Shown piece after piece: positions 139 through 55,719 of a DNA stretch of 64,000 nt. The stretch comes from Patescibacteria group bacterium (lineage in GTDB: Bacteria; Patescibacteriota; Patescibacteriia; UBA9570; JAHJKD01), in NCBI GenBank assembly GCA_041660885.1, contig JBAZVM010000003.1, positions 38,894-102,893 on the forward strand. Reading direction: 5' to 3'. The notes beneath the pieces were generated by a model. It had not been told where the DNA came from and did not search any database. It saw nothing but the letters and a program-made list of their open reading frames with translations. The translations under genes and the position numbers were made by a program. The number at the start of each line of letters is the position of its first letter. Within the stretch, counting starts at the first letter, position 1.

Positions 139-3096
139 ATGGCTACGCGCATTGAGATAAAATACAAAAAAAACATTTTAGATACTCGTGCGCAAGTACG
201 TTTAAAAAAATTATCTTCGGACTTCCCTAAAATAAAGGAAGTTTTTTTAGTTGATGTTTATACTATCAACAAATCTTTCAGCACCGAACAATTAAAATCC
301 ATTGCTTCAGCATTGACTAATCCTGTTGTTCAGGAATATTTCTTGTCGGAATCCGCCATAAAAGAAGGTTTTAATTACGCTGCAGAAATCGGTTTTTTGC
401 CCGGTGTTACTGATAATACCGGCCATACGGCCAAAGAAATTATTGAAGACATGCTAAGAATAAAATTTCAAGATGATGAAGATGTATATTTTTCTCAATG
501 TACTTTAATCAAAGGGAAAATCAGCATTAAAGAAGCGAAAAAAATAGGCGATAGTCTGGCCAACAGTTTGATCCAAAGAATTCACATAAAAAATATAGAG
601 CAATACGCGAAAGAAGATGGCATGGATATTATCGTGCCCAAAGTAAATCTAGAGAACGCAATCAATGTTTTGAATGTCGATTTAAATGTTAGCGATAAAG
701 AATTAATAGAATTGGGCAAAAAAGGCATAGCCGAAGAAAATGGAAAAAGGCGCGGGCCTTTGGCTTTGGATTTGAAATCTTTATTAGCGATAAAAAAATA
801 TTTTGGCAAACACAAAAGAAAACCGACTGATATTGAGCTGGAAGCGCTCGCCCAAACATGGAGCGAACATTGCAAACATACTATTTTCGCCTCGCAAATC
901 GATGAAATAAAAGACGGTTTGTACAAGCATTATATTAAGCGGGCTACGGCGGAAATACGCCGTAAAAAGGGAAAAAAGGATTTTTGCGTATCCGTATTTA
1001 AAGATAATTCCGGCGCCATTATTTTCGATGATAAATGGTTAATAACCGATAAGGTGGAAACTCATAATTCACCCTCGGCGCTCGATCCTTTCGGCGGCGC
1101 CATTACCGGCATCGTGGGCGTAAACCGCGATACCATAGGTTTCGGCAAAGGCGCTTTGCCCGTGATAAATAAATATGGCTATTGTTTTGCCTCTCCTTTC
1201 GATGTTGAGCCGATATACAGGGATAAAGAAAAAAAAGATAAGATGCTTTCCCCAAAAAGAATTCTGGAAGGTGTGGTAGCCGGGGTAAACGCCGGAGGAA
1301 ATTGTTCCGGTATTCCCACGCCGCAAGGATTCGTTTATTTTCACGAGCGCTATAAAGGAAAGCCTTTAATATTCGTGGGAACAGTAGGGTTGATACCAAG
1401 AAAAATTAACGGGCAAAACAGCTGCGAAAAAAAAGCCAAACCCGGAGATAAAATTATTATGGTTGGCGGAAAAGTGGGAGCCGATGGCATACATGGAGCT
1501 ACCTTTTCTTCGGAATCTCTTTCTTCCGGCAGCCCGGCCACGGCCGTACAGATTGGCGATCCGTATATGCAGAAAAAATTTTCAGACGCCATTATAAAAG
1601 AGGCCCGAGCACAAAATTTGTACAATTCCATTACCGATAACGGCGCCGGCGGATTGTCTTCTTCCATCGGTGAGATGGCCAAAGAAGCGGGTGGCTGTGA
1701 AGTGTTGCTTGAGAAAGTACCGCTAAAATATCCCGGATTGCAGCCTTGGCAAATTTGGATTTCCGAATCGCAAGAAAGAATGTCTCTGGCCGTACCAACG
1801 GAAAAAGTAGATCAATTCATGGATCTGATGAAAAGAAGAGGCGTAGATGCTTGGGTGATCGGAGAGTTTAATGATTCCGGAAAATGTGTGGTGAAGTATA
1901 ATAATCAAACAGTGCTTGATTTGGATTTGGAATTCATGCACGATGGCAATCCCGAATATATTTTAAAAACTAAATGGAAAAAGCCGACAATAAAAACACC
2001 AAAGATAAAGAAGATAAATCAGAAAAAAATATTTTTAAAGTTATTATCTTCTTTAAACAATGCCTGCTTCAATTTTGTTTCTTATCAGTACGATTACGAA
2101 GTTCTGGGCGGTTCACGCGTGAAACCTTTGCATGGCCACGGGCAAGTGAATTCTCTTGCCTCGGTTACCAGGCCAGTTTTGCATTCTAAAAAAGGCGTGG
2201 TTTGCTCGCAAGGGTTGTATCCCACTTATAGCGAACTTGATCCTTATAATATGGCCGGATGCTCCATAGATACGGCTGTCAGAAATTGTTTGAGTGTCGG
2301 CGGTTCGCTTGATAAGCTAGCTTTATTGGATAATTTTTGCTGGTGCTCTTCCAATGAACCGGAGCGCTTGGGCCAATTAAAAGAAGCCGCTCGCGGGGCT
2401 TATGATTTTGCCAAAGCCTTTGGAACTCCTTTTATTTCCGGTAAAGACAGCATGTTTAATGATTTTAAAGGATTTGATAAACAAGGAAATCCGATAAAAA
2501 TTTCTGTTCCGCCCACTCTTTTAATTTCTGCCACCGGTGTGATTGAAAACACAGATCATTGTGTTACTTTAGACGCAAAAAAAGAAGGAGATTTAATCTA
2601 TGTACTCGGTGAAACTAAGAATGAATTAGCCGGAAGCGAATATTATCGTGCGCTACGCATTGATGGCGGTAAAGTGCCTGTGGTCGATTATAAAACTGCC
2701 ATTAAACTTTATAGAAATTTAGAAAAAGCCATACAGAAAAAAGTAATCGCGTCTGCGCAAAGCATTATATGGGGAGGATTATTAATGGCTTTGGCTAAAA
2801 CAAGCATTGGCGGCCGTTTGGGTATGAAAATAGATTTGGCTAAATTAATAAAAAGCGACGATGTTAATAAAGACGATATCGCTTTATATTCAGAAACCCA
2901 AAGCAGATTGGTTGTTACTGTTTCTCCAAAAAATAAGAAAATATTTGAGAAATTATTCATAAATAATCAAACCTCCTTGATAGGAAAAATTGTTAAAAAT
3001 AAATTTATTATTAATGGATTATCCGGCAAAGAAGTCATTAATGTTTCCATCAATGACTTGGAAAATAATTATAAAAGAACTTTTAAGAATTTTTAA
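139..3096 (+). CDS. purL: Phosphoribosylformylglycinamidine (FGAM) synthase subunit PurL with an N-terminal PurS-like extension (985 aa)
   Basis: The PurL hallmark WSEHCKHTIF lies near residue 240. There are AIR-synthase-like repeats (GGAITGIVGVNRD, DNGAGGLSSSIGEMA, ISGKDSM). The protein is about 200 aa longer at the N-terminus than stand-alone PurL, and it is followed by purQ and purM. Confidence 0.9.
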   Translation: MATRIEIKYKKNILDTRAQVRLKKLSSDFPKIKEVFLVDVYTINKSFSTEQLKSIASALTNPVVQEYFLSESAIKEGFNYAAEIGFLPGVTDNTGHTAKEIIEDMLRIKFQDDEDVYFSQCTLIKGKISIKEAKKIGDSLANSLIQRIHIKNIEQYAKEDGMDIIVPKVNLENAINVLNVDLNVSDKELIELGKKGIAEENGKRRGPLALDLKSLLAIKKYFGKHKRKPTDIELEALAQTWSEHCKHTIFASQIDEIKDGLYKHYIKRATAEIRRKKGKKDFCVSVFKDNSGAIIFDDKWLITDKVETHNSPSALDPFGGAITGIVGVNRDTIGFGKGALPVINKYGYCFASPFDVEPIYRDKEKKDKMLSPKRILEGVVAGVNAGGNCSGIPTPQGFVYFHERYKGKPLIFVGTVGLIPRKINGQNSCEKKAKPGDKIIMVGGKVGADGIHGATFSSESLSSGSPATAVQIGDPYMQKKFSDAIIKEARAQNLYNSITDNGAGGLSSSIGEMAKEAGGCEVLLEKVPLKYPGLQPWQIWISESQERMSLAVPTEKVDQFMDLMKRRGVDAWVIGEFNDSGKCVVKYNNQTVLDLDLEFMHDGNPEYILKTKWKKPTIKTPKIKKINQKKIFLKLLSSLNNACFNFVSYQYDYEVLGGSRVKPLHGHGQVNSLASVTRPVLHSKKGVVCSQGLYPTYSELDPYNMAGCSIDTAVRNCLSVGGSLDKLALLDNFCWCSSNEPERLGQLKEAARGAYDFAKAFGTPFISGKDSMFNDFKGFDKQGNPIKISVPPTLLISATGVIENTDHCVTLDAKKEGDLIYVLGETKNELAGSEYYRALRIDGGKVPVVDYKTAIKLYRNLEKAIQKKVIASAQSIIWGGLLMALAKTSIGGRLGMKIDLAKLIKSDDVNKDDIALYSETQSRLVVTVSPKNKKIFEKLFINNQTSLIGKIVKNKFIINGLSGKEVINVSINDLENNYKRTFKNF

Positions 3097-3097
3097 T

Positions 3098-3868
3098 ATG
3101 AAGCCAAAAGTACTAATTTTATCCGGTTACGGCTTGAATCGAGAAAACGACGCGGTATACGCTTGGGAAAAAGCCAAAGCAACCGTGGAAATTGTACATG
3201 TCAATGATTTAATAGATTATCGGAAAAAGTTAGATGATTATCAGATTTTTATGATACCCGGCGGATTTTCTTATGCCGATGAAACGGGTTCGGGTAATGC
3301 TTTGGCCAATAAAATAAAATATAATTTAGGCGGCCAATTGATAAAATTCATCAATGACGGAAAATTAGTTTTGGGAGTCTGCAACGGTTTTCAAGTTTTA
3401 GTTAATTTGGGGTTACTGCCGGGCATAGACGGCGATTACGAATCAAGAAGAGTGGCTTTGCAGTACAACGCTTCTGCTAGATTGCAGTGCCGCTGGGTGT
3501 ATATTAGAAATCAGTCCAAGAAATGCGTATTTACCAAAGGCATTAAAGATATTATTTTTTGCCCTGTGGCGCACGGAGAAGGCAACTTATATACTGATAA
3601 AAAGACGCTTAAGATTTTAAAAGACAACGACCAGATAGTATTTAGATTCGTTAATGAAAATGGTTCTCCGGCCAAAGGAAAATTTCCTATTAATCCTAAT
3701 GGCGCGCTAGAAGACATAACCGGCATTTGCGATAGTACCGGCCGGGTTCTTGGCATGATGCCGCACGCGGAAGACGCGGTAAATTTAACTAATTTGCCGG
3801 AATGGTCTACAATAAAGAAAACTACCGGTTTAAAGATCTATCAAAACGCTGTTAATTATTTTAAGTAA
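3098..3868 (+). CDS. purQ: FGAM synthase glutamine amidotransferase subunit PurQ
   Basis: Starts MKPKVLILSGYG and contains the class-I GATase nucleophile elbow GVCNGFQ and the HGEG motif. I chose the ATG at 3098 rather than the upstream ORF-track start at 2990, which overlaps purL. Confidence 0.85.
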   Translation: MKPKVLILSGYGLNRENDAVYAWEKAKATVEIVHVNDLIDYRKKLDDYQIFMIPGGFSYADETGSGNALANKIKYNLGGQLIKFINDGKLVLGVCNGFQVLVNLGLLPGIDGDYESRRVALQYNASARLQCRWVYIRNQSKKCVFTKGIKDIIFCPVAHGEGNLYTDKKTLKILKDNDQIVFRFVNENGSPAKGKFPINPNGALEDITGICDSTGRVLGMMPHAEDAVNLTNLPEWSTIKKTTGLKIYQNAVNYFK

Positions 3869-41735: not shown

Positions 41736-41760
41736 CGCAAAGCATATTTATTAATGAAAA

Positions 41761-41944
41761 AACCTCCAACCCCCCATCTCCACCCTCACCCCCGCCCCGC
41801 GGCGGGTAGAGAGACGAGGGACACACTCACCGAATGGGCTAGTAAAAGGAGGGGTTCCATTTTGGAACTTGAAGGTTTGACCATTATAATATAATTGTTT
41901 AATATATTTACATAGGCGCCCCTTTGCGGCGCTTTTTTTGTTTT
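41761..41944 (+). repeat. 184-bp direct repeat R, copy A (partner 42800-42983)
   Basis: aacctccaacccc...ccccgcggcgggtagagagacgaggg.acacactcaccgaatgggctagtaaaaggaggggttccatttt...taattgtttaatatatttacataggcgcccctttgcggcgctttttttgtttt. The two copies are collinear, with substitutions clustered in the C-rich 5' part and around 41875-41895. Confidence 0.9.
41916..41939 (+). terminator. Rho-independent terminator inside repeat copy A
   Basis: GCGCC-cctttgc-GGCGC followed by T7. Confidence 0.7.
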
Positions 41945-41976: not shown

Positions 41977-42801
41977 ATGAAAAAAATTATTACAAAAGGA
42001 CTGCAAATATGCATGTTTCAGAAAAATAAGAAGGATTATATATCTCTAACCGATATAGCCAGATATAAGAATCGTGTTGAGCCAAGAGATGTAATTAAAA
42101 ATTGGATGCGTAATAGAAGTACCATTGAATTTATTGGGTTTTGGGAGAAACTGAATAACCCCAATTTTAAAGAGGTCGAATTCGACCTCTTTAAAAAAGA
42201 AGCCGGTAATAACGCTTTTGTGCTTACGCCACAAAAGTGGATCGAAATAACAAATGCTATTGGAATTATTTCTAAATCTGGCAAATATGGGGGTGGCACT
42301 TTTGCCCATAAAGACATTGCTTTTGAATTTGCTTCCTGGATAAGTGCGGAATTTAAACTTTATTTGATTAAAGAATTCCAAAGATTAAAAGAAGAAGAAA
42401 ATGCGCGTTTGGCTCTTGGCTGGGATACGAAACGCATGTTAACCAAAATTAACTATCGTATTCACACGGACGCCATTAAAGCGCATTTAATTCCAAAACG
42501 GTTGCCAAAAGCGAAAATAAACATGATTTATGCCAATGAAGCGGATGTATTGAACATGGCTTTATTTGGTTTGACTGCCAAAGAATGGCGAGAAAAGAAT
42601 AAAAATCTTGATGGTAATATACGCGATTACGCGGATGTCGCCCAGCTTGTGTGCTTGGCGAATTTGGAAACTTTTAACGCTGAATTTATTAGAAAGGGGA
42701 TAAAACAATCAGACCGATTGTTAAATCTAAACGAAATCGCGATCGTTCAAATGAAATCGTTAATAAATAATTCCAGTTTAAAAAAATTATTACCTAAATA
42801 A
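41977..42801 (+). CDS. KilA-N domain protein
   Basis: ISLTDIARYKN...VIKNWMRNRSTIEFIGFWEKLNNPNF...GGGTFAHKDIAFEFASWIS is the KilA-N DNA-binding domain signature. Confidence 0.75.
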   Translation: MKKIITKGLQICMFQKNKKDYISLTDIARYKNRVEPRDVIKNWMRNRSTIEFIGFWEKLNNPNFKEVEFDLFKKEAGNNAFVLTPQKWIEITNAIGIISKSGKYGGGTFAHKDIAFEFASWISAEFKLYLIKEFQRLKEEENARLALGWDTKRMLTKINYRIHTDAIKAHLIPKRLPKAKINMIYANEADVLNMALFGLTAKEWREKNKNLDGNIRDYADVAQLVCLANLETFNAEFIRKGIKQSDRLLNLNEIAIVQMKSLINNSSLKKLLPK

Positions 42802-42983
42802 CCTCCAACCCCCATCCCCACCCCCACCTCTGCCCCGCGGCGGGTAGAGAGACGAGGGGACACACTCACCGAATGGGCTAGTAAAAGGAGGGGTTCCATT
42901 TTAGAATATGAAAGTTTGACCTTTATAAAATAATTGTTTAATATATTTACATAGGCGCCCCTTTGCGGCGCTTTTTTTGTTTT
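42800..42983 (+). repeat. 184-bp direct repeat R, copy B
   Basis: See 41761-41944. It starts inside the stop codon of the KilA-N gene. Confidence 0.9.
42955..42978 (+). terminator. Rho-independent terminator inside repeat copy B
   Basis: GCGCC-cctttgc-GGCGC followed by T7, identical to copy A. Confidence 0.7.
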
Positions 42984-54244: not shown

Positions 54245-54316
54245 TTGACGAATATTAAAATTTATTGTATTTTAAATACAAATGTGTTATGAATATAATG
54301 CATTTGTATTTATTTA

Positions 54317-54400
54317 GGGCAGGTACCAGAGCGGTCAAATGGGCTTGGCTGTAAACCAAGTGGCCTCCGGCCTTCGGGGGTTCGAATCCCTCCCTGCCCA
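54317..54400 (+). tRNA. tRNA-Tyr (anticodon GTA), class II with a long variable arm
   Basis: Acceptor GGGCAGG/CCTGCCC, anticodon stem CTTGG/CCAAG with loop CTGTAAA, a long variable arm (tggcctccggccttcg), T arm GGGGG-TTCGAAT-CCCTC, and discriminator A. Confidence 0.88.
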
Positions 54401-54475
54401 CCTTCGTCCCGCCTGCGGCGGGACTTCGGTGGGCACGGCCCACCGTTGCTCTGTTTTATACAGACTTCGGTGGGC
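54396..54475 (+). other. GC-rich hairpin cluster starting in the tRNA-Tyr 3' end (alternating GCCCACC / GGTGGGC segments)
   Basis: The segments are GCCCACC (54396-54402), ttc, GTCCCGCC-tgc-GGCGGGAC, ttc, GGTGGGC (54428-54434), acg, GCCCACC (54438-54444), a gap, then GGTGGGC (54469-54475). Several mutually exclusive pairings are possible. Confidence 0.6.
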
Positions 54476-54503
54476 GTGTCTTCCTTAATATTATATATAA
54501 AGC

Positions 54504-54749
54504 ATGTATTTTGTTTATATTTTAAAGAGTGCAGCTGATAATAATTTATATATTGGCTCAACTGATAATTTAGATAGAAGAATTCAAGAACATAATACCG
54601 GTAATGTAAATTCGACAAAAAATAGAAGACCATTAAAATTAAAATGCTATTTCGTTTTTGAAGAAAGAAAAACCGCAGCACAATTTGAAAAGTATCTAAA
54701 AACCGGATCTGGTAAGGCATTCGCTTATAAACACTTTAATATTAAATAA
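54504..54749 (+). CDS. GIY-YIG nuclease family protein (81 aa, UPF0213-like)
   Basis: MYFVYILKS..NNLYIGSTDNLDRRIQEHN.G......NRRPLKL matches the GIY-(10 aa)-YIG, R and E core of small GIY-YIG proteins. Confidence 0.8.
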   Translation: MYFVYILKSAADNNLYIGSTDNLDRRIQEHNTGNVNSTKNRRPLKLKCYFVFEERKTAAQFEKYLKTGSGKAFAYKHFNIK

Positions 54750-54828
54750 GTATTCAGGGTTCGAATTTTAACCTACGTAGCCCGAAGGGCGAAGTAGGTC
54801 CCTCCCGGGATACAATAAAATAAAAAAT

Positions 54829-55719
54829 ATGAATTACGGCGACATCTTAAAAAAATCATACCAGCTTACCAAAAAGTATAAAATTTTATGGTTACTTGGT
54901 TTATTAATAGGTGGTGGGTCTTCTTACAGCGGAAACTATAGTTTCAGCGGTTTAGGCGATTCAGAACTCGGCAATGATTTAACAAACGAATTTGATTTTT
55001 CCATTATTCAAGATTATTGGTATATCGTAGCCGTATTAATGCTTTTGGTGCTGCTCTTTGTATTGGTGGCGGCTGTTATTTCCATTATGGCGCGCGGCGG
55101 CTTGTTTCATGGTGTTCATCAAGCGCAGGAAGATAAAAAACCTTCTTTTAAAGAAAGTTTCTATGTGGGCGCCGGAAAGTTTTGGCGCGTGTTGAGCATT
55201 CAATTGGCTATGGTGGCCGTCATTGGCGCGGTGATATGCGTATTAATCATTCCGGCCGCGTTGCTCATGATCATTCCTGTGATCGGTTGGGTGATTGGCG
55301 GATTGCTATTAATTGTTGCCATTCTCTTGATTATCGTTTTAAGTTTAACTTTTGCTTTGTTAAGCAATTATATTTATTGTTACGCGGTTATTGAAAATCA
55401 AACGATTGTGCAATCTATTAAATCCGGCTGGGCGTTGCTTAAAAAGAATTTAGGCGAATCCATTATCATGGCTTTGATTATTTACGGCATTGGCTTTGGC
55501 GCGGCTTTAGTGATAATTTTTTCCCTGATATTAATCTTAGCAATTTTTGGCGGGGTCGGCTTCTTATTATATTTAGCGTTTAAATGGATTGGAGTGGGAA
55601 TAGCCGCCGCTATTGCCTTAATAGTTTTGATGGTTATTGGTTTATTGCTAAGAGGAGTTTTAAATGTATTTACATATTCTTGCTGGGTTTATACTTTTAA
55701 AGAATTAAAAGGAAAATAG
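54829..55719 (+). CDS. Polytopic membrane protein, hypothetical
   Basis: A 296-aa ORF with 5-6 long hydrophobic segments. Confidence 0.6.
   Translation: MNYGDILKKSYQLTKKYKILWLLGLLIGGGSSYSGNYSFSGLGDSELGNDLTNEFDFSIIQDYWYIVAVLMLLVLLFVLVAAVISIMARGGLFHGVHQAQEDKKPSFKESFYVGAGKFWRVLSIQLAMVAVIGAVICVLIIPAALLMIIPVIGWVIGGLLLIVAILLIIVLSLTFALLSNYIYCYAVIENQTIVQSIKSGWALLKKNLGESIIMALIIYGIGFGAALVIIFSLILILAIFGGVGFLLYLAFKWIGVGIAAAIALIVLMVIGLLLRGVLNVFTYSCWVYTFKELKGK

Follow-up and report, generated by a model that had tools for sequence, protein, structure and literature searches.

What are the hairpins and the small nuclease gene that follow a transfer RNA (tRNA) gene in a Patescibacteria genome, and what keeps them there? 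The sequence in question is a 64-kb stretch of Patescibacteria DNA with a G+C content of 38.7% (hereafter the window), in which an intact tRNA-Tyr gene runs at its 3' end into a GC-rich leader of hairpins, followed by a gene for an 81-residue GIY-YIG nuclease and, past the stop codon, by a split partial copy of the same tRNA. An earlier analysis of the letters alone (the sequence-only reading) took this arrangement for the footprint of an element integrated into a tRNA gene. We find that hairpins and gene form a discrete cassette tied to the tRNA, and that related cassettes stand behind the 3' ends of tRNA and transfer-messenger RNA (tmRNA) genes in at least six phyla. With slightly better than even confidence, we favour a selfish cassette that is specific for tRNA and tmRNA 3' ends and that is old and selectively maintained in the window lineage.

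The linkage to stable RNA genes is a property of the family as a whole. One genome per species was scanned, and the best 80 of 575 relatives' loci were kept (labelled L004, L088 and so on where they need to be told apart); tRNA and tmRNA genes were called by ARAGORN together with Rfam, and 76 of the 80 loci had enough upstream sequence for linkage to be judged. A tRNA or tmRNA gene on the same strand ends upstream of the GIY-YIG gene in 68 of these 76 informative loci, against a chance expectation of about 2%, given how densely unlinked tRNAs occur in these loci. The upstream gene ends some 30–660 nt away, and within 300 nt in 59 of the 68 linked loci. Serine tRNAs are the commonest partners, followed by a range of others (Ala, Tyr, Gln, Glu, Pro, Trp, Lys, Met, Arg, Asn and Leu) and by tmRNA, and the carriers belong to Patescibacteria, Bacteroidota, Alphaproteobacteria, Acidobacteriota, Dependentiae (Babeliales), Desulfobacterota and other groups. 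Cultured lineages among the carriers are Bradyrhizobium/Tardiphaga, with tRNA-Ala(GGC) as partner (L025, L061 and L066), Pseudaquidulcibacter (L022) and Chitinophaga (L072). In three loci (L049, L051 and L074) the cassette is wedged between two tRNAs, the second of which begins 1–3 nt past the stop codon or overlaps it, so that the complete unit measures only about 0.4 kb. Across the family cassette size is 0.35–0.5 kb and the nuclease has 78–81 residues; some members have, in addition, a hairpin module in inverted orientation and a partial tRNA 3' copy that is displaced. For the canonical UPF0213 gene, yazA, the setting is a trmN6-yazA-rsmI operon and no tRNA gene precedes it, so that the tRNA/tmRNA context is specific to the present subfamily. 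In Bacillus and Listeria (L095, 1486-1785, and L096, 1483-1755) yazA overlaps the 3' end of the gene for the tRNA(Val) m6A37 methyltransferase and the 5' end of rsmI; its neighbourhood is one of RNA modification, not of tRNA genes. Two loci (L004 and L027) hold two diverged cassettes each, about 1–2 kb apart, and in both the second cassette, which is of the window type (L004, 1150-1297; L027, 200-444), stands behind a tmRNA-like 3' end (..CCGGGyTCAyyyCCCGGCATCTCCAC) that ARAGORN does not call.

The leader between the RNA gene and the nuclease gene follows a grammar of its own. It starts at tRNA position 75/76 with (CC)TTCG: the discriminator is followed directly by CC and TTCG in 28 of 59 linked tRNAs, and by CCA, 1–3 nt and TTCG in another 23 of the 59. 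TTCG lies within the first 12 nt in 52 of 66 linked tRNAs as compared with 3 of 39 unlinked ones; CCT occurs in 2 of 40 unlinked tRNAs of the same loci, both with a gene-free leader, and 36 of the 39 unlinked tRNAs in related loci have no GC-rich structured leader. The junction, that is the tRNA end plus TTCGC, has a perfect reverse complement of 7–13 nt deeper in the leader (mean 7.9 nt versus 5.4 in shuffles, p=2e-10), and this complement varies with the tRNA end: CACCActtcgc/gcgaagTGGTG for Ala, CCGCCttcgc/gcgaaGGCGG for Ser and TGCCCACC/GGTGGGCA in the window. The modules are built on the plan arm-TTC-stem-loop-stem-T(T/A)C-arm', the first outer arm being the tRNA's own 3' terminus, which later leader segments repeat or complement. 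Modules that read TTC on the tRNA strand are labelled M+, and the outer arm with which they start is the tRNA 3' end; those in the other orientation (M-) read G(T/A)A...GAA and are placed either ahead of the gene, after M+, or past the gene, which is the case in the window. By strict criteria, 26 of 28 two-tier modules fall within the 48 kb around the genes and 2 within 312 kb of flanks. CGAAG, CTACG, CGTAG and CTTCG are the four most enriched leader pentamers, at 7–10-fold. The leader hairpin is conserved sequence of the element and not a terminator. Genomes that encode CCA have leaders pairing with CCA plus gcc only, and there close relatives stand behind many different RNAs; in Patescibacteria the pairing extends to the discriminator and acceptor bases, and clades keep to one tRNA type. 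This pattern is consistent with a role of leader-tRNA pairing in target choice or function.

In the window itself, the tRNA-Tyr, hairpins, repeats, nuclease gene and split T-arm copy described by the sequence-only reading are all present at their positions (Table 1) and exceed chance expectation. The last 7 nt of the tRNA, GCCCACC (54396-402), comprise the end of the acceptor 3' strand, the discriminator A and CC, and at the same time serve as the outer 5' arm of the first hairpin, with GGTGGGC at 54428-34 as partner; the left end of the cassette, TTCG, begins at 54403, so that the junction reads discriminator-CC and then TTCG. Most related loci have a hairpin of the M+ plan at their tRNA 3' end. 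The second hairpin holds a second copy of the tRNA 3' end and a second complement, and a tRNA-3'-end copy after the first complement is also seen in relatives of the window cassette. The segment GACTTCGGTGGGC is found at 54422-34 and again at 54463-75, a count reached in none of 100 shuffles, and alternative pairings among these leader repeats are possible. Both flanks of the gene, for which folding had been proposed, are more stable than expected: 54396-54503 folds at -57.2 kcal/mol (z=-7.3, with none of 200 shuffles equally stable) and 54745-54830 at -24.7 kcal/mol (z=-3.3). The G+C content is 53.5% in the leader and 26% in the open reading frame (ORF) of the nuclease. The other three tRNAs of the window (Thr, Thr and Trp) are followed by AT-rich sequence without such hairpins, and a scan of the 64 kb for GC-rich hairpins returned no module besides those at the tRNA-Tyr cassette. 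Rfam 15 gave only sub-threshold, spurious matches on the window leader and right end, and at the gathering threshold it recovered only tRNA and tmRNA on 20 related loci; neither search gave a ribozyme, T-box, group I intron or tRNA-like match for the leader or right end. On the + strand between the tRNA-Tyr end and the ORF start there is neither a promoter-like site nor a T-run terminator, and the site at 54271-99 is the sole candidate promoter able to drive tRNA-Tyr and cassette together. With no internal promoter or terminator and a promoter-like site before the tRNA, co-transcription of the nuclease gene with tRNA-Tyr is plausible.

Table 1. Coordinates of the cassette and its surroundings in the window, and of the amplified units in one related locus.
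Feature	Sequence	Position	Strand	Remark
Promoter-like site	TTTAAA-17-TATAAT	54271..54299	+	upstream of tRNA-Tyr; consensus match only
Intact tRNA-Tyr(GTA)		54317..54402	+	ARAGORN; Rfam tRNA 59.8 bits, E=2e-12
Module M+	GCCCACC-TTC-GTCCCGCC-tgc-GGCGGGAC-TTC-GGTGGGC	54396..54434	+	two-tier hairpin
Second hairpin		54437..54478	+	GCCCACC (54438-44) with GGTGGGC (54469-75)
GIY-YIG nuclease gene, 81 residues		54504..54749	+	catalytic domain only, SLX1/UPF0213-like
Right end, first half	GGGTTCGAAT	54757..54766	+	equals T-stem 5' strand + T-loop of tRNA-Tyr (54378-87)
Module M-	CCTAC-GTA-GCCC-gaa-GGGC-GAA-GTAGG	54772..54798	+	inverted two-tier hairpin
Right end, second half	TCCCTCCC	54799..54806	+	equals T-stem 3' strand + first two acceptor bases of tRNA-Tyr
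L010, tandem units/second gene copy		2745-3150 and 3252-3458		

Past the gene, GGGTTCGAAT and TCCCTCCC represent the two halves of a partial tRNA-Tyr copy of 10 + 7-8 nt, which is split by a hairpin and comes without the acceptor strand. The window has a single instance of the split motif GGGTTCGAAT...CCCTCCC, which none of 100 shuffles contains, and GGTTCGAAT occurs twice in the 64 kb, once in tRNA-Tyr and once at the right end. The right-end GGG pairs with CCC at 54800-02 and thereby encloses the M- hairpin, the bottom strand of which reads TTC...TAC, as M+ does. The likeness to tRNA-Tyr is limited to the 10-mer of T-stem and T-loop and the 7-8-mer; the tRNA covariance model of Rfam, which had been proposed as a check, gave no match to the fragment 54750-54815 even at E<=10.

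Significant direct repeats around the ORF were detected in 14 of the 68 linked loci (cut-off p<=0.01, at which about 0.7 loci are expected by chance among 68). In L011, L013 and L052 the downstream copy consists of the T-stem 3' strand, the acceptor 3' strand, the discriminator and a C (14 nt); in L072 it is 20 nt long and begins in the T-loop; and the 54-nt repeat of L060 combines 16 nt of the tRNA with the first hairpin, the similarity running on to the next start codon. These downstream copies end as unlinked tRNAs do, with discriminator-C and then unrelated sequence, and this is what a displaced original tRNA 3' end would look like. The mean similarity of the sequence downstream of the gene to its own tRNA, as compared with other tRNAs, is not significant; only the tail of the distribution (the 14 of 68 loci) is. 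The proposal of a partial tRNA-3' copy past the gene stands insofar as other members carry exact copies, and falls as regards the T-loop-like fragment, which is not general in the family: the motif GTTCRAN is not enriched, with about 20 occurrences against about 14 expected in the 200 nt past the gene, five of them in annotated tRNAs, and the fragment as a family feature was rejected. It holds for the window's lineage only. As a separate observation, a family member without an upstream tRNA at a contig end from IMG/VR (L093, 1501-1850) has, after the gene, CTCTCC-GAAG-TTTTAA-CGAAG-GAGAG followed by the tRNA-3'-like fragment AATCCCAGTCGGCTCAC; CGAAG-GAGA(G) also precedes the displaced tRNA copy in L003, with the variant CGAAG-TAGA in L013.

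Modules can be amplified or stand by themselves. L010 shows a leader and gene, then twelve tandem hairpin units of 35–36 nt, and then a leader with a truncated, 94%-identical copy of the gene, and tandem hairpin arrays are also found in L005, L057, L058, L061 and L066. Gene-free leaders follow a tRNA-Ser(tga) in L009 (2889-2950), a tRNA-Leu in L071 (2790-2877, minus strand) and a tRNA-Ile(gat) in L015, and a hairpin module without a GIY-YIG gene lies at a tRNA 3' end in L088 (29-70). Such gene-free modules may be footprints of lost cassettes or independent units.

The history of the window cassette can be followed at its own locus. The three closest proteins, at 67–70% identity (L083/84/85, L086 and L087), lie in the same neighbourhood as that of the window, with the shared order MacB/FtsX ... 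tRNA-Tyr - GIY - DUF7544; the immediate neighbours in the window are genes for a Cyt-b5-domain protein and a DUF7544 membrane protein. Pairwise ratios of nonsynonymous to synonymous divergence (dN/dS) among the nuclease genes of this lineage are 0.15–0.41 at a synonymous divergence (dS) of 0.68–1.35, and the gene has therefore long been kept by selection at the tRNA-Tyr locus. By this measure the cassette in the window lineage is to be viewed as old, vertically inherited and under purifying selection, not as a recent insertion. Thus, of the notion of an element integrated into a tRNA gene, the tRNA-linked cassette survives, with a left junction at the extreme 3' end of the tRNA (75/76), and a recent insertion does not.

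The right ends of these orthologous cassettes were compared. The window reads GGGTTCGAAT-tttaa-(CCTAC gta GCCC gaa GGGC gaa GTAGG)-T-CCCTCCC, where the brackets enclose the hairpin; L087 reads GGGGTTCGAAT-ttta-(CCCTAC gta ... gga GTAGGG)-CCCGACC; L086 reads GGGGGTGAGAAT-tttat-(CCTAC gaa GCTCTAC gaa GTAGAGC gaa GTAGG)-GCCCGACC; and L083 reads TCCCTC-ttta-(CCCGCC gaag TCCCGC aaat GCGGGA cgaag GAGGG)-CCTGCCCACC. The T-arm-like motif is thus kept in L087 and degenerate in L086, and L083 has the tRNA-Tyr 3' end split at a position different from that in the window; the split copy of tRNA-Tyr is accordingly reproduced in relatives, and the refuting condition named in the sequence-only reading does not hold. 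A consensus structure of the right end for the window, L087 and L086 has 14 pairs, three of them with compensatory changes.

Comparison of the orthologous locus, as had been suggested, also uncovered a site without the gene. L088, a 1-kb Logan contig that begins inside the tRNA, was found by a DUF7544 protein search plus contig look-up and carries the closest DUF7544 orthologue, with 68% identity as compared with 36–42% for the GIY-bearing relatives. It reads ...CGGGGGTTCGAATCCCTCCCTGCCCAC-att-(GTCCGCC gaag CCCCGA gtaaa TCGAGGGG cgtag GCGGA)-tcttatctataaaataaaaat-ATG(DUF7544), that is, the tRNA-Tyr end plus one M- hairpin of the same type and in the same place as the right-end hairpin of the window, and no GIY gene. 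The cassette is hence present at the tRNA-Tyr locus in the window, L083, L086 and L087 and absent from L088. As more distant relatives have it, loss in L088 is the most parsimonious reading. A metagenome scan with the DUF7544 neighbour returned only the window's own sequence, and two distant DUF7544 homologues (P0125 and P0127, 27–28% identity) are not syntenic.

Over the family, switches of target are seen. Nearest-neighbour proteins share the tRNA type in 43 cases and differ in 23, and switches extend to high protein identity: at 80% the partners are Arg(cct) and tmRNA (Acidobacteriaceae), and at 87% they are Ser(tga) and Ser(gct). L004 and L044 have the genes for Ser(gct) and Ser(tga) side by side, and in L009 the cassette lies between them. 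One Ser-linked clade spans Patescibacteria and Bacteroidota.

The encoded protein matches the Pfam GIY-YIG family (PF01541) with E=1e-18 (67.8 bits versus a cut-off of 22.6). In an alignment of 40 relatives Y16, G18, H30 and E62 are invariant and R26 is kept in at least 90%, and a C-terminal motif, FEKYLKTGSG, is characteristic of the tRNA-linked subfamily. The family profile matches BH0048 (1zg2, E=6.5e-14), EF2693 (1ywl, 1.1e-8) and Slx1 (1.7e-7), and I-TevI weakly. An AlphaFold model with a mean per-residue confidence (pLDDT) of 95.9 shows the order of secondary structure elements E-E-H-E-H-H, and its nearest solved folds are UPF0213 (1zg2), Slx1 (TM 0.66–0.69) and the catalytic domain of I-TevI. 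Profile and model together place the protein in the minimal Slx1-like/UPF0213 branch of the GIY-YIG superfamily. The catalytic domain spans all 81 residues, leaving no DNA-binding module. A match to TIGR01453 covers residues 2–38 only and is below cut-off, and neither PADLOC nor NCBIfam assigns the protein to a defence system or specific family. The 78–81-residue proteins are predicted to be active nucleases of the structure-specific type. The family comprises 6,018 clusters at 50% identity (E<=1e-10). Many database representatives are called at 100–135 residues with the domain at the C-terminus; their start codons have probably been set too far upstream, inside the GC-rich, stop-poor leader.

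Taken together, we interpret the cassette as a selfish, target-specific element that would bring its own copy of the tRNA 3' end and so leave the host tRNA intact. Being promoterless, it would be transcribed by read-through from the tRNA promoter. Recombination, break-induced or homologous, within the repeats of tRNA 3' ends and hairpins would account for its gain, duplication and loss, with the nuclease making the breaks at hairpin or cruciform structures. This co-transcription and route of movement are inferred, and so is homing in the sense of nuclease cleavage of empty sites. In effect the system would join two known strategies, that of a free-standing homing endonuclease gene and the 3'-end replacement of tRNA-integrating islands.

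Several observations weigh against a selfish cassette. No upstream tRNA or tmRNA was found in 8 of the 76 loci, and flanking tRNA repeats are confined to about a fifth of the linked loci. Phage and plasmid collections are essentially devoid of the family, so that no transfer vehicle is evident; IMG/VR yielded only two contigs with the family, both with the gene at a contig end. There are no near-identical copies at different sites, and no recent transposition was seen. The right end of the window, with T-arm halves flanking a hairpin, does not follow from an L088-type empty site by one simple insertion, and no single-step history could be reconstructed for the right ends of the L088, L083 and window types. 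All characterised GIY-YIG homing endonucleases have a DNA-binding domain and the present protein has none, which leaves site-specific cleavage unexplained. Finally, residence at one locus to a dS of 0.7–1.35 under purifying selection also fits a domesticated host gene.

That alternative survives best, and we consider it unlikely. The gene would encode a small structure-specific nuclease, co-transcribed with tRNA or tmRNA and serving the host, for instance by acting on RNA or by processing stalled forks, R-loops or secondary structures where stable-RNA genes are highly transcribed; the leader would be a regulatory or processing element of a tRNA-mRNA co-transcript, and the T-arm-like right end a signal for RNA processing or stability. 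Such a role would agree with purifying selection and long residence at an orthologous locus, with the strict same-strand layout free of internal promoter and terminator, and with a right-end structure conserved through compensatory changes, a like hairpin being kept in L088 where the nuclease gene is missing. SLX1-type nucleases are moreover host repair enzymes (PMC1564403). However, L088 is the window's closest relative, and it lacks the gene; within a genome no more than one or two tRNAs are followed by the gene, and in close relatives the tRNAs differ. Tandem amplification, decayed copies and flanking direct repeats that copy tRNA 3' ends likewise speak against a host function.

The strand on which the hairpins fold bears on the same choice, as a first hairpin that is stable in antisense and an excess of A:C over G:T mismatches are unexpected for a sense RNA element. 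On the TTC-reading strand the non-Watson-Crick positions of the module stems are A:C in 18 cases and G:T in 5, low numbers that are not independent of each other. For the first hairpin, greater stability on the antisense strand is predicted in 46–47 of 57–58 loci (p about 1e-5), an energy bias that follows from the conserved triplets; both observations give only a hint of the CGWAG-reading strand. The internal loops on that strand are GAA/GWA; such loops can adopt sheared G-A pairing and correspond to d(C-GNA-G), a DNA loop of very high stability. The two end modules of the window are predicted to fold best on opposite strands, which hints at the symmetry expected of DNA ends and not of one RNA.

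A bolder form of the selfish reading, which we hold to be unlikely, would make the cassette a new kind of prokaryotic mobile element, a bare SLX1-like nuclease whose target is chosen by nucleic-acid pairing instead of by protein. The terminal two-tier modules carry the complement of the target tRNA or tmRNA 3' end, and the hairpin or cruciform so formed would be cut by the nuclease, on one strand at one end and on the other strand at the other. Targeting of this kind would explain why cassettes that pair with CCA plus gcc stand behind many RNAs and those of Patescibacteria, pairing with discriminator and acceptor bases, stay with one tRNA type.

It is more doubtful still that the hairpin modules are themselves the mobile or amplifying entities, comparable to repetitive extragenic palindromes (REPs), REPINs or double-hairpin elements, with the GIY-YIG protein as a single-copy nuclease acting in trans. 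The tRNA 3' end would then be a preferred landing site for hairpins, and the gene would merely be kept nearby, as the REP-associated tyrosine transposase (RAYT) is flanked by its REPs. Modules do occur in both orientations around the gene, in the six tandem arrays and as gene-free leaders after tRNAs in L009, L071 and L015, and the place of the hairpin within tRNA-Tyr-derived sequence is a different one in each of L088, L083 and the window. The CGWAG signature also contains GTAG, a core typical of REPs. Yet the modules are not dispersed, only the two strict ones in 312 kb lying outside cassette neighbourhoods and none elsewhere in the window; their stems covary with the adjacent tRNA end and are not sequence repeats; and there is no HUH/Y1 transposase.

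An intact tRNA with a partial 3' copy is the classical attL/attR pattern, but it is highly improbable that the locus is the remnant of an integrase-mediated island in tRNA-Tyr with GIY-YIG cargo, or a decayed tandem tRNA-Tyr duplicate around an unrelated gene, given that neither an integrase nor a transposase lies near the window cassette, that the called genes of L083, L084, L086 and L087 include no integrase, and that the 0.4-kb architecture, with a conserved leader grammar specific to the GIY-YIG gene, recurs at 68 independent loci, some wedged between adjacent tRNAs.

The favoured selfish cassette shares features with several known systems and coincides with none. Like the UPF0213 proteins (B. 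halodurans BH0048/1zg2, E. faecalis EF2693/1ywl and B. subtilis YazA), its product is a single minimal domain of about 80–100 residues with the same catalytic residues; it differs in the tRNA/tmRNA context, hairpin leader and FEKYLKTGSG motif, as opposed to the trmN6-yazA-rsmI operon of Bacillota. A superfamily survey of 2006 regarded the Slx1-like lineage as vertically inherited, cellular and non-selfish (PMC1564403). With the free-standing GIY-YIG homing endonucleases (T4 Seg, I-TevI-type) it has in common a small nuclease gene lodged beside or between conserved genes, a fixed site at which relatives differ in carrying the gene, and the lack of a transposase or integrase, and SegB of phage T4 acts in a tRNA gene region (PMC13096335). 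However, Seg and Tev enzymes have 200–250 residues, with linkers and DNA-binding domains, as against a bare catalytic domain here, and they belong to the UvrC/homing endonuclease branch, not to that of Slx1 (PMC1564403). They are also borne by phages or organelles and have no target-pairing hairpin modules, whereas the present family is chromosomal, with hardly a member in phage and plasmid collections.

Integrase-mediated tRNA/tmRNA islands and prophages likewise target tRNA/tmRNA 3' ends and supply a replacement 3' end, with an intact gene at one border and, here in a subset, a direct 3' repeat at the other, often starting in the T-arm; clean tRNA-3' repeats of 14–54 nt are those of L011, L013, L052, L060 and L072. 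The cassettes differ from them in having no tyrosine or serine recombinase, in measuring 0.4 kb and not kilobases, in lacking repeats in most members, and in a junction at position 75/76 with a conserved TTCG. Free-standing GIY-YIG ORFs of mitochondria can supply a host gene with a new 3' end, the old one being displaced. Together with the double-hairpin elements of Allomyces mitochondrial DNA they offer a further parallel, the association of GIY-YIG ORFs with small mobile hairpin elements. There too a replacement 3'-end copy keeps the host gene functional, although the targets are fungal protein-coding genes and the nucleases are larger; we know of no relation of these ORFs or hairpin elements to tRNA 3' termini. 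The combination of REP/REPIN and RAYT resembles the cassettes in its single-copy gene, inverted short palindromes, G(T/A)AG core by the stems and tandem amplification, and differs from them in that they have a GIY-YIG nuclease and not an HUH/Y1 (IS200/IS605-like) enzyme, undispersed modules, and stems that covary with the tRNA end.

We found no description of tRNA/tmRNA-linked minimal GIY-YIG cassettes in the open-access full-text literature, and the family is apparently undescribed. If our interpretation is correct, a very large family annotated only as 'GIY-YIG nuclease family protein' gains a genomic habit, the 3' ends of tRNA and tmRNA genes; no smaller class of tRNA-targeting elements would be known, and the Slx1-like branch, previously thought purely cellular, would have its first selfish lineage. 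The cassette also offers a testable system, both for site specificity in a catalytic domain without a DNA-binding module and for pairing between hairpins and tRNA 3' termini as a means of targeting. For annotation, GC-rich leaders probably cause N-terminally over-extended gene calls, and partial tRNA copies may be miscalled as tRNA pseudogenes. In bacteria of the candidate phyla radiation, a structured trailer from position 76 may affect tRNA maturation.

A second type of small GIY-YIG protein, of 84–87 residues and with a C-terminal REK.LK motif, is encoded in L015 (2030-2284), L035 (2031-2285) and L037 (2071-2334). Its gene adjoins an intact tRNA on the upstream side, and a partial copy of the 5' part of the same tRNA lies before the gene, measuring 36 + 19 nt in L037 (1950-2045), 20 nt in L015 (1931-1950) and about 10 nt in L035 (about 1998-2007). 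In L037 the anticodon loop of this copy is interrupted by a 41-nt double hairpin. The arrangement is a mirror image of that of the window type. Elsewhere in the window, and unrelated to the cassette, two near-identical C-rich segments of 82 nt (AAxAACCTCCAACCCCC...CACTCACCGAATGGGC) lie about 1 kb apart at 41758-41839 and 42797-42878.

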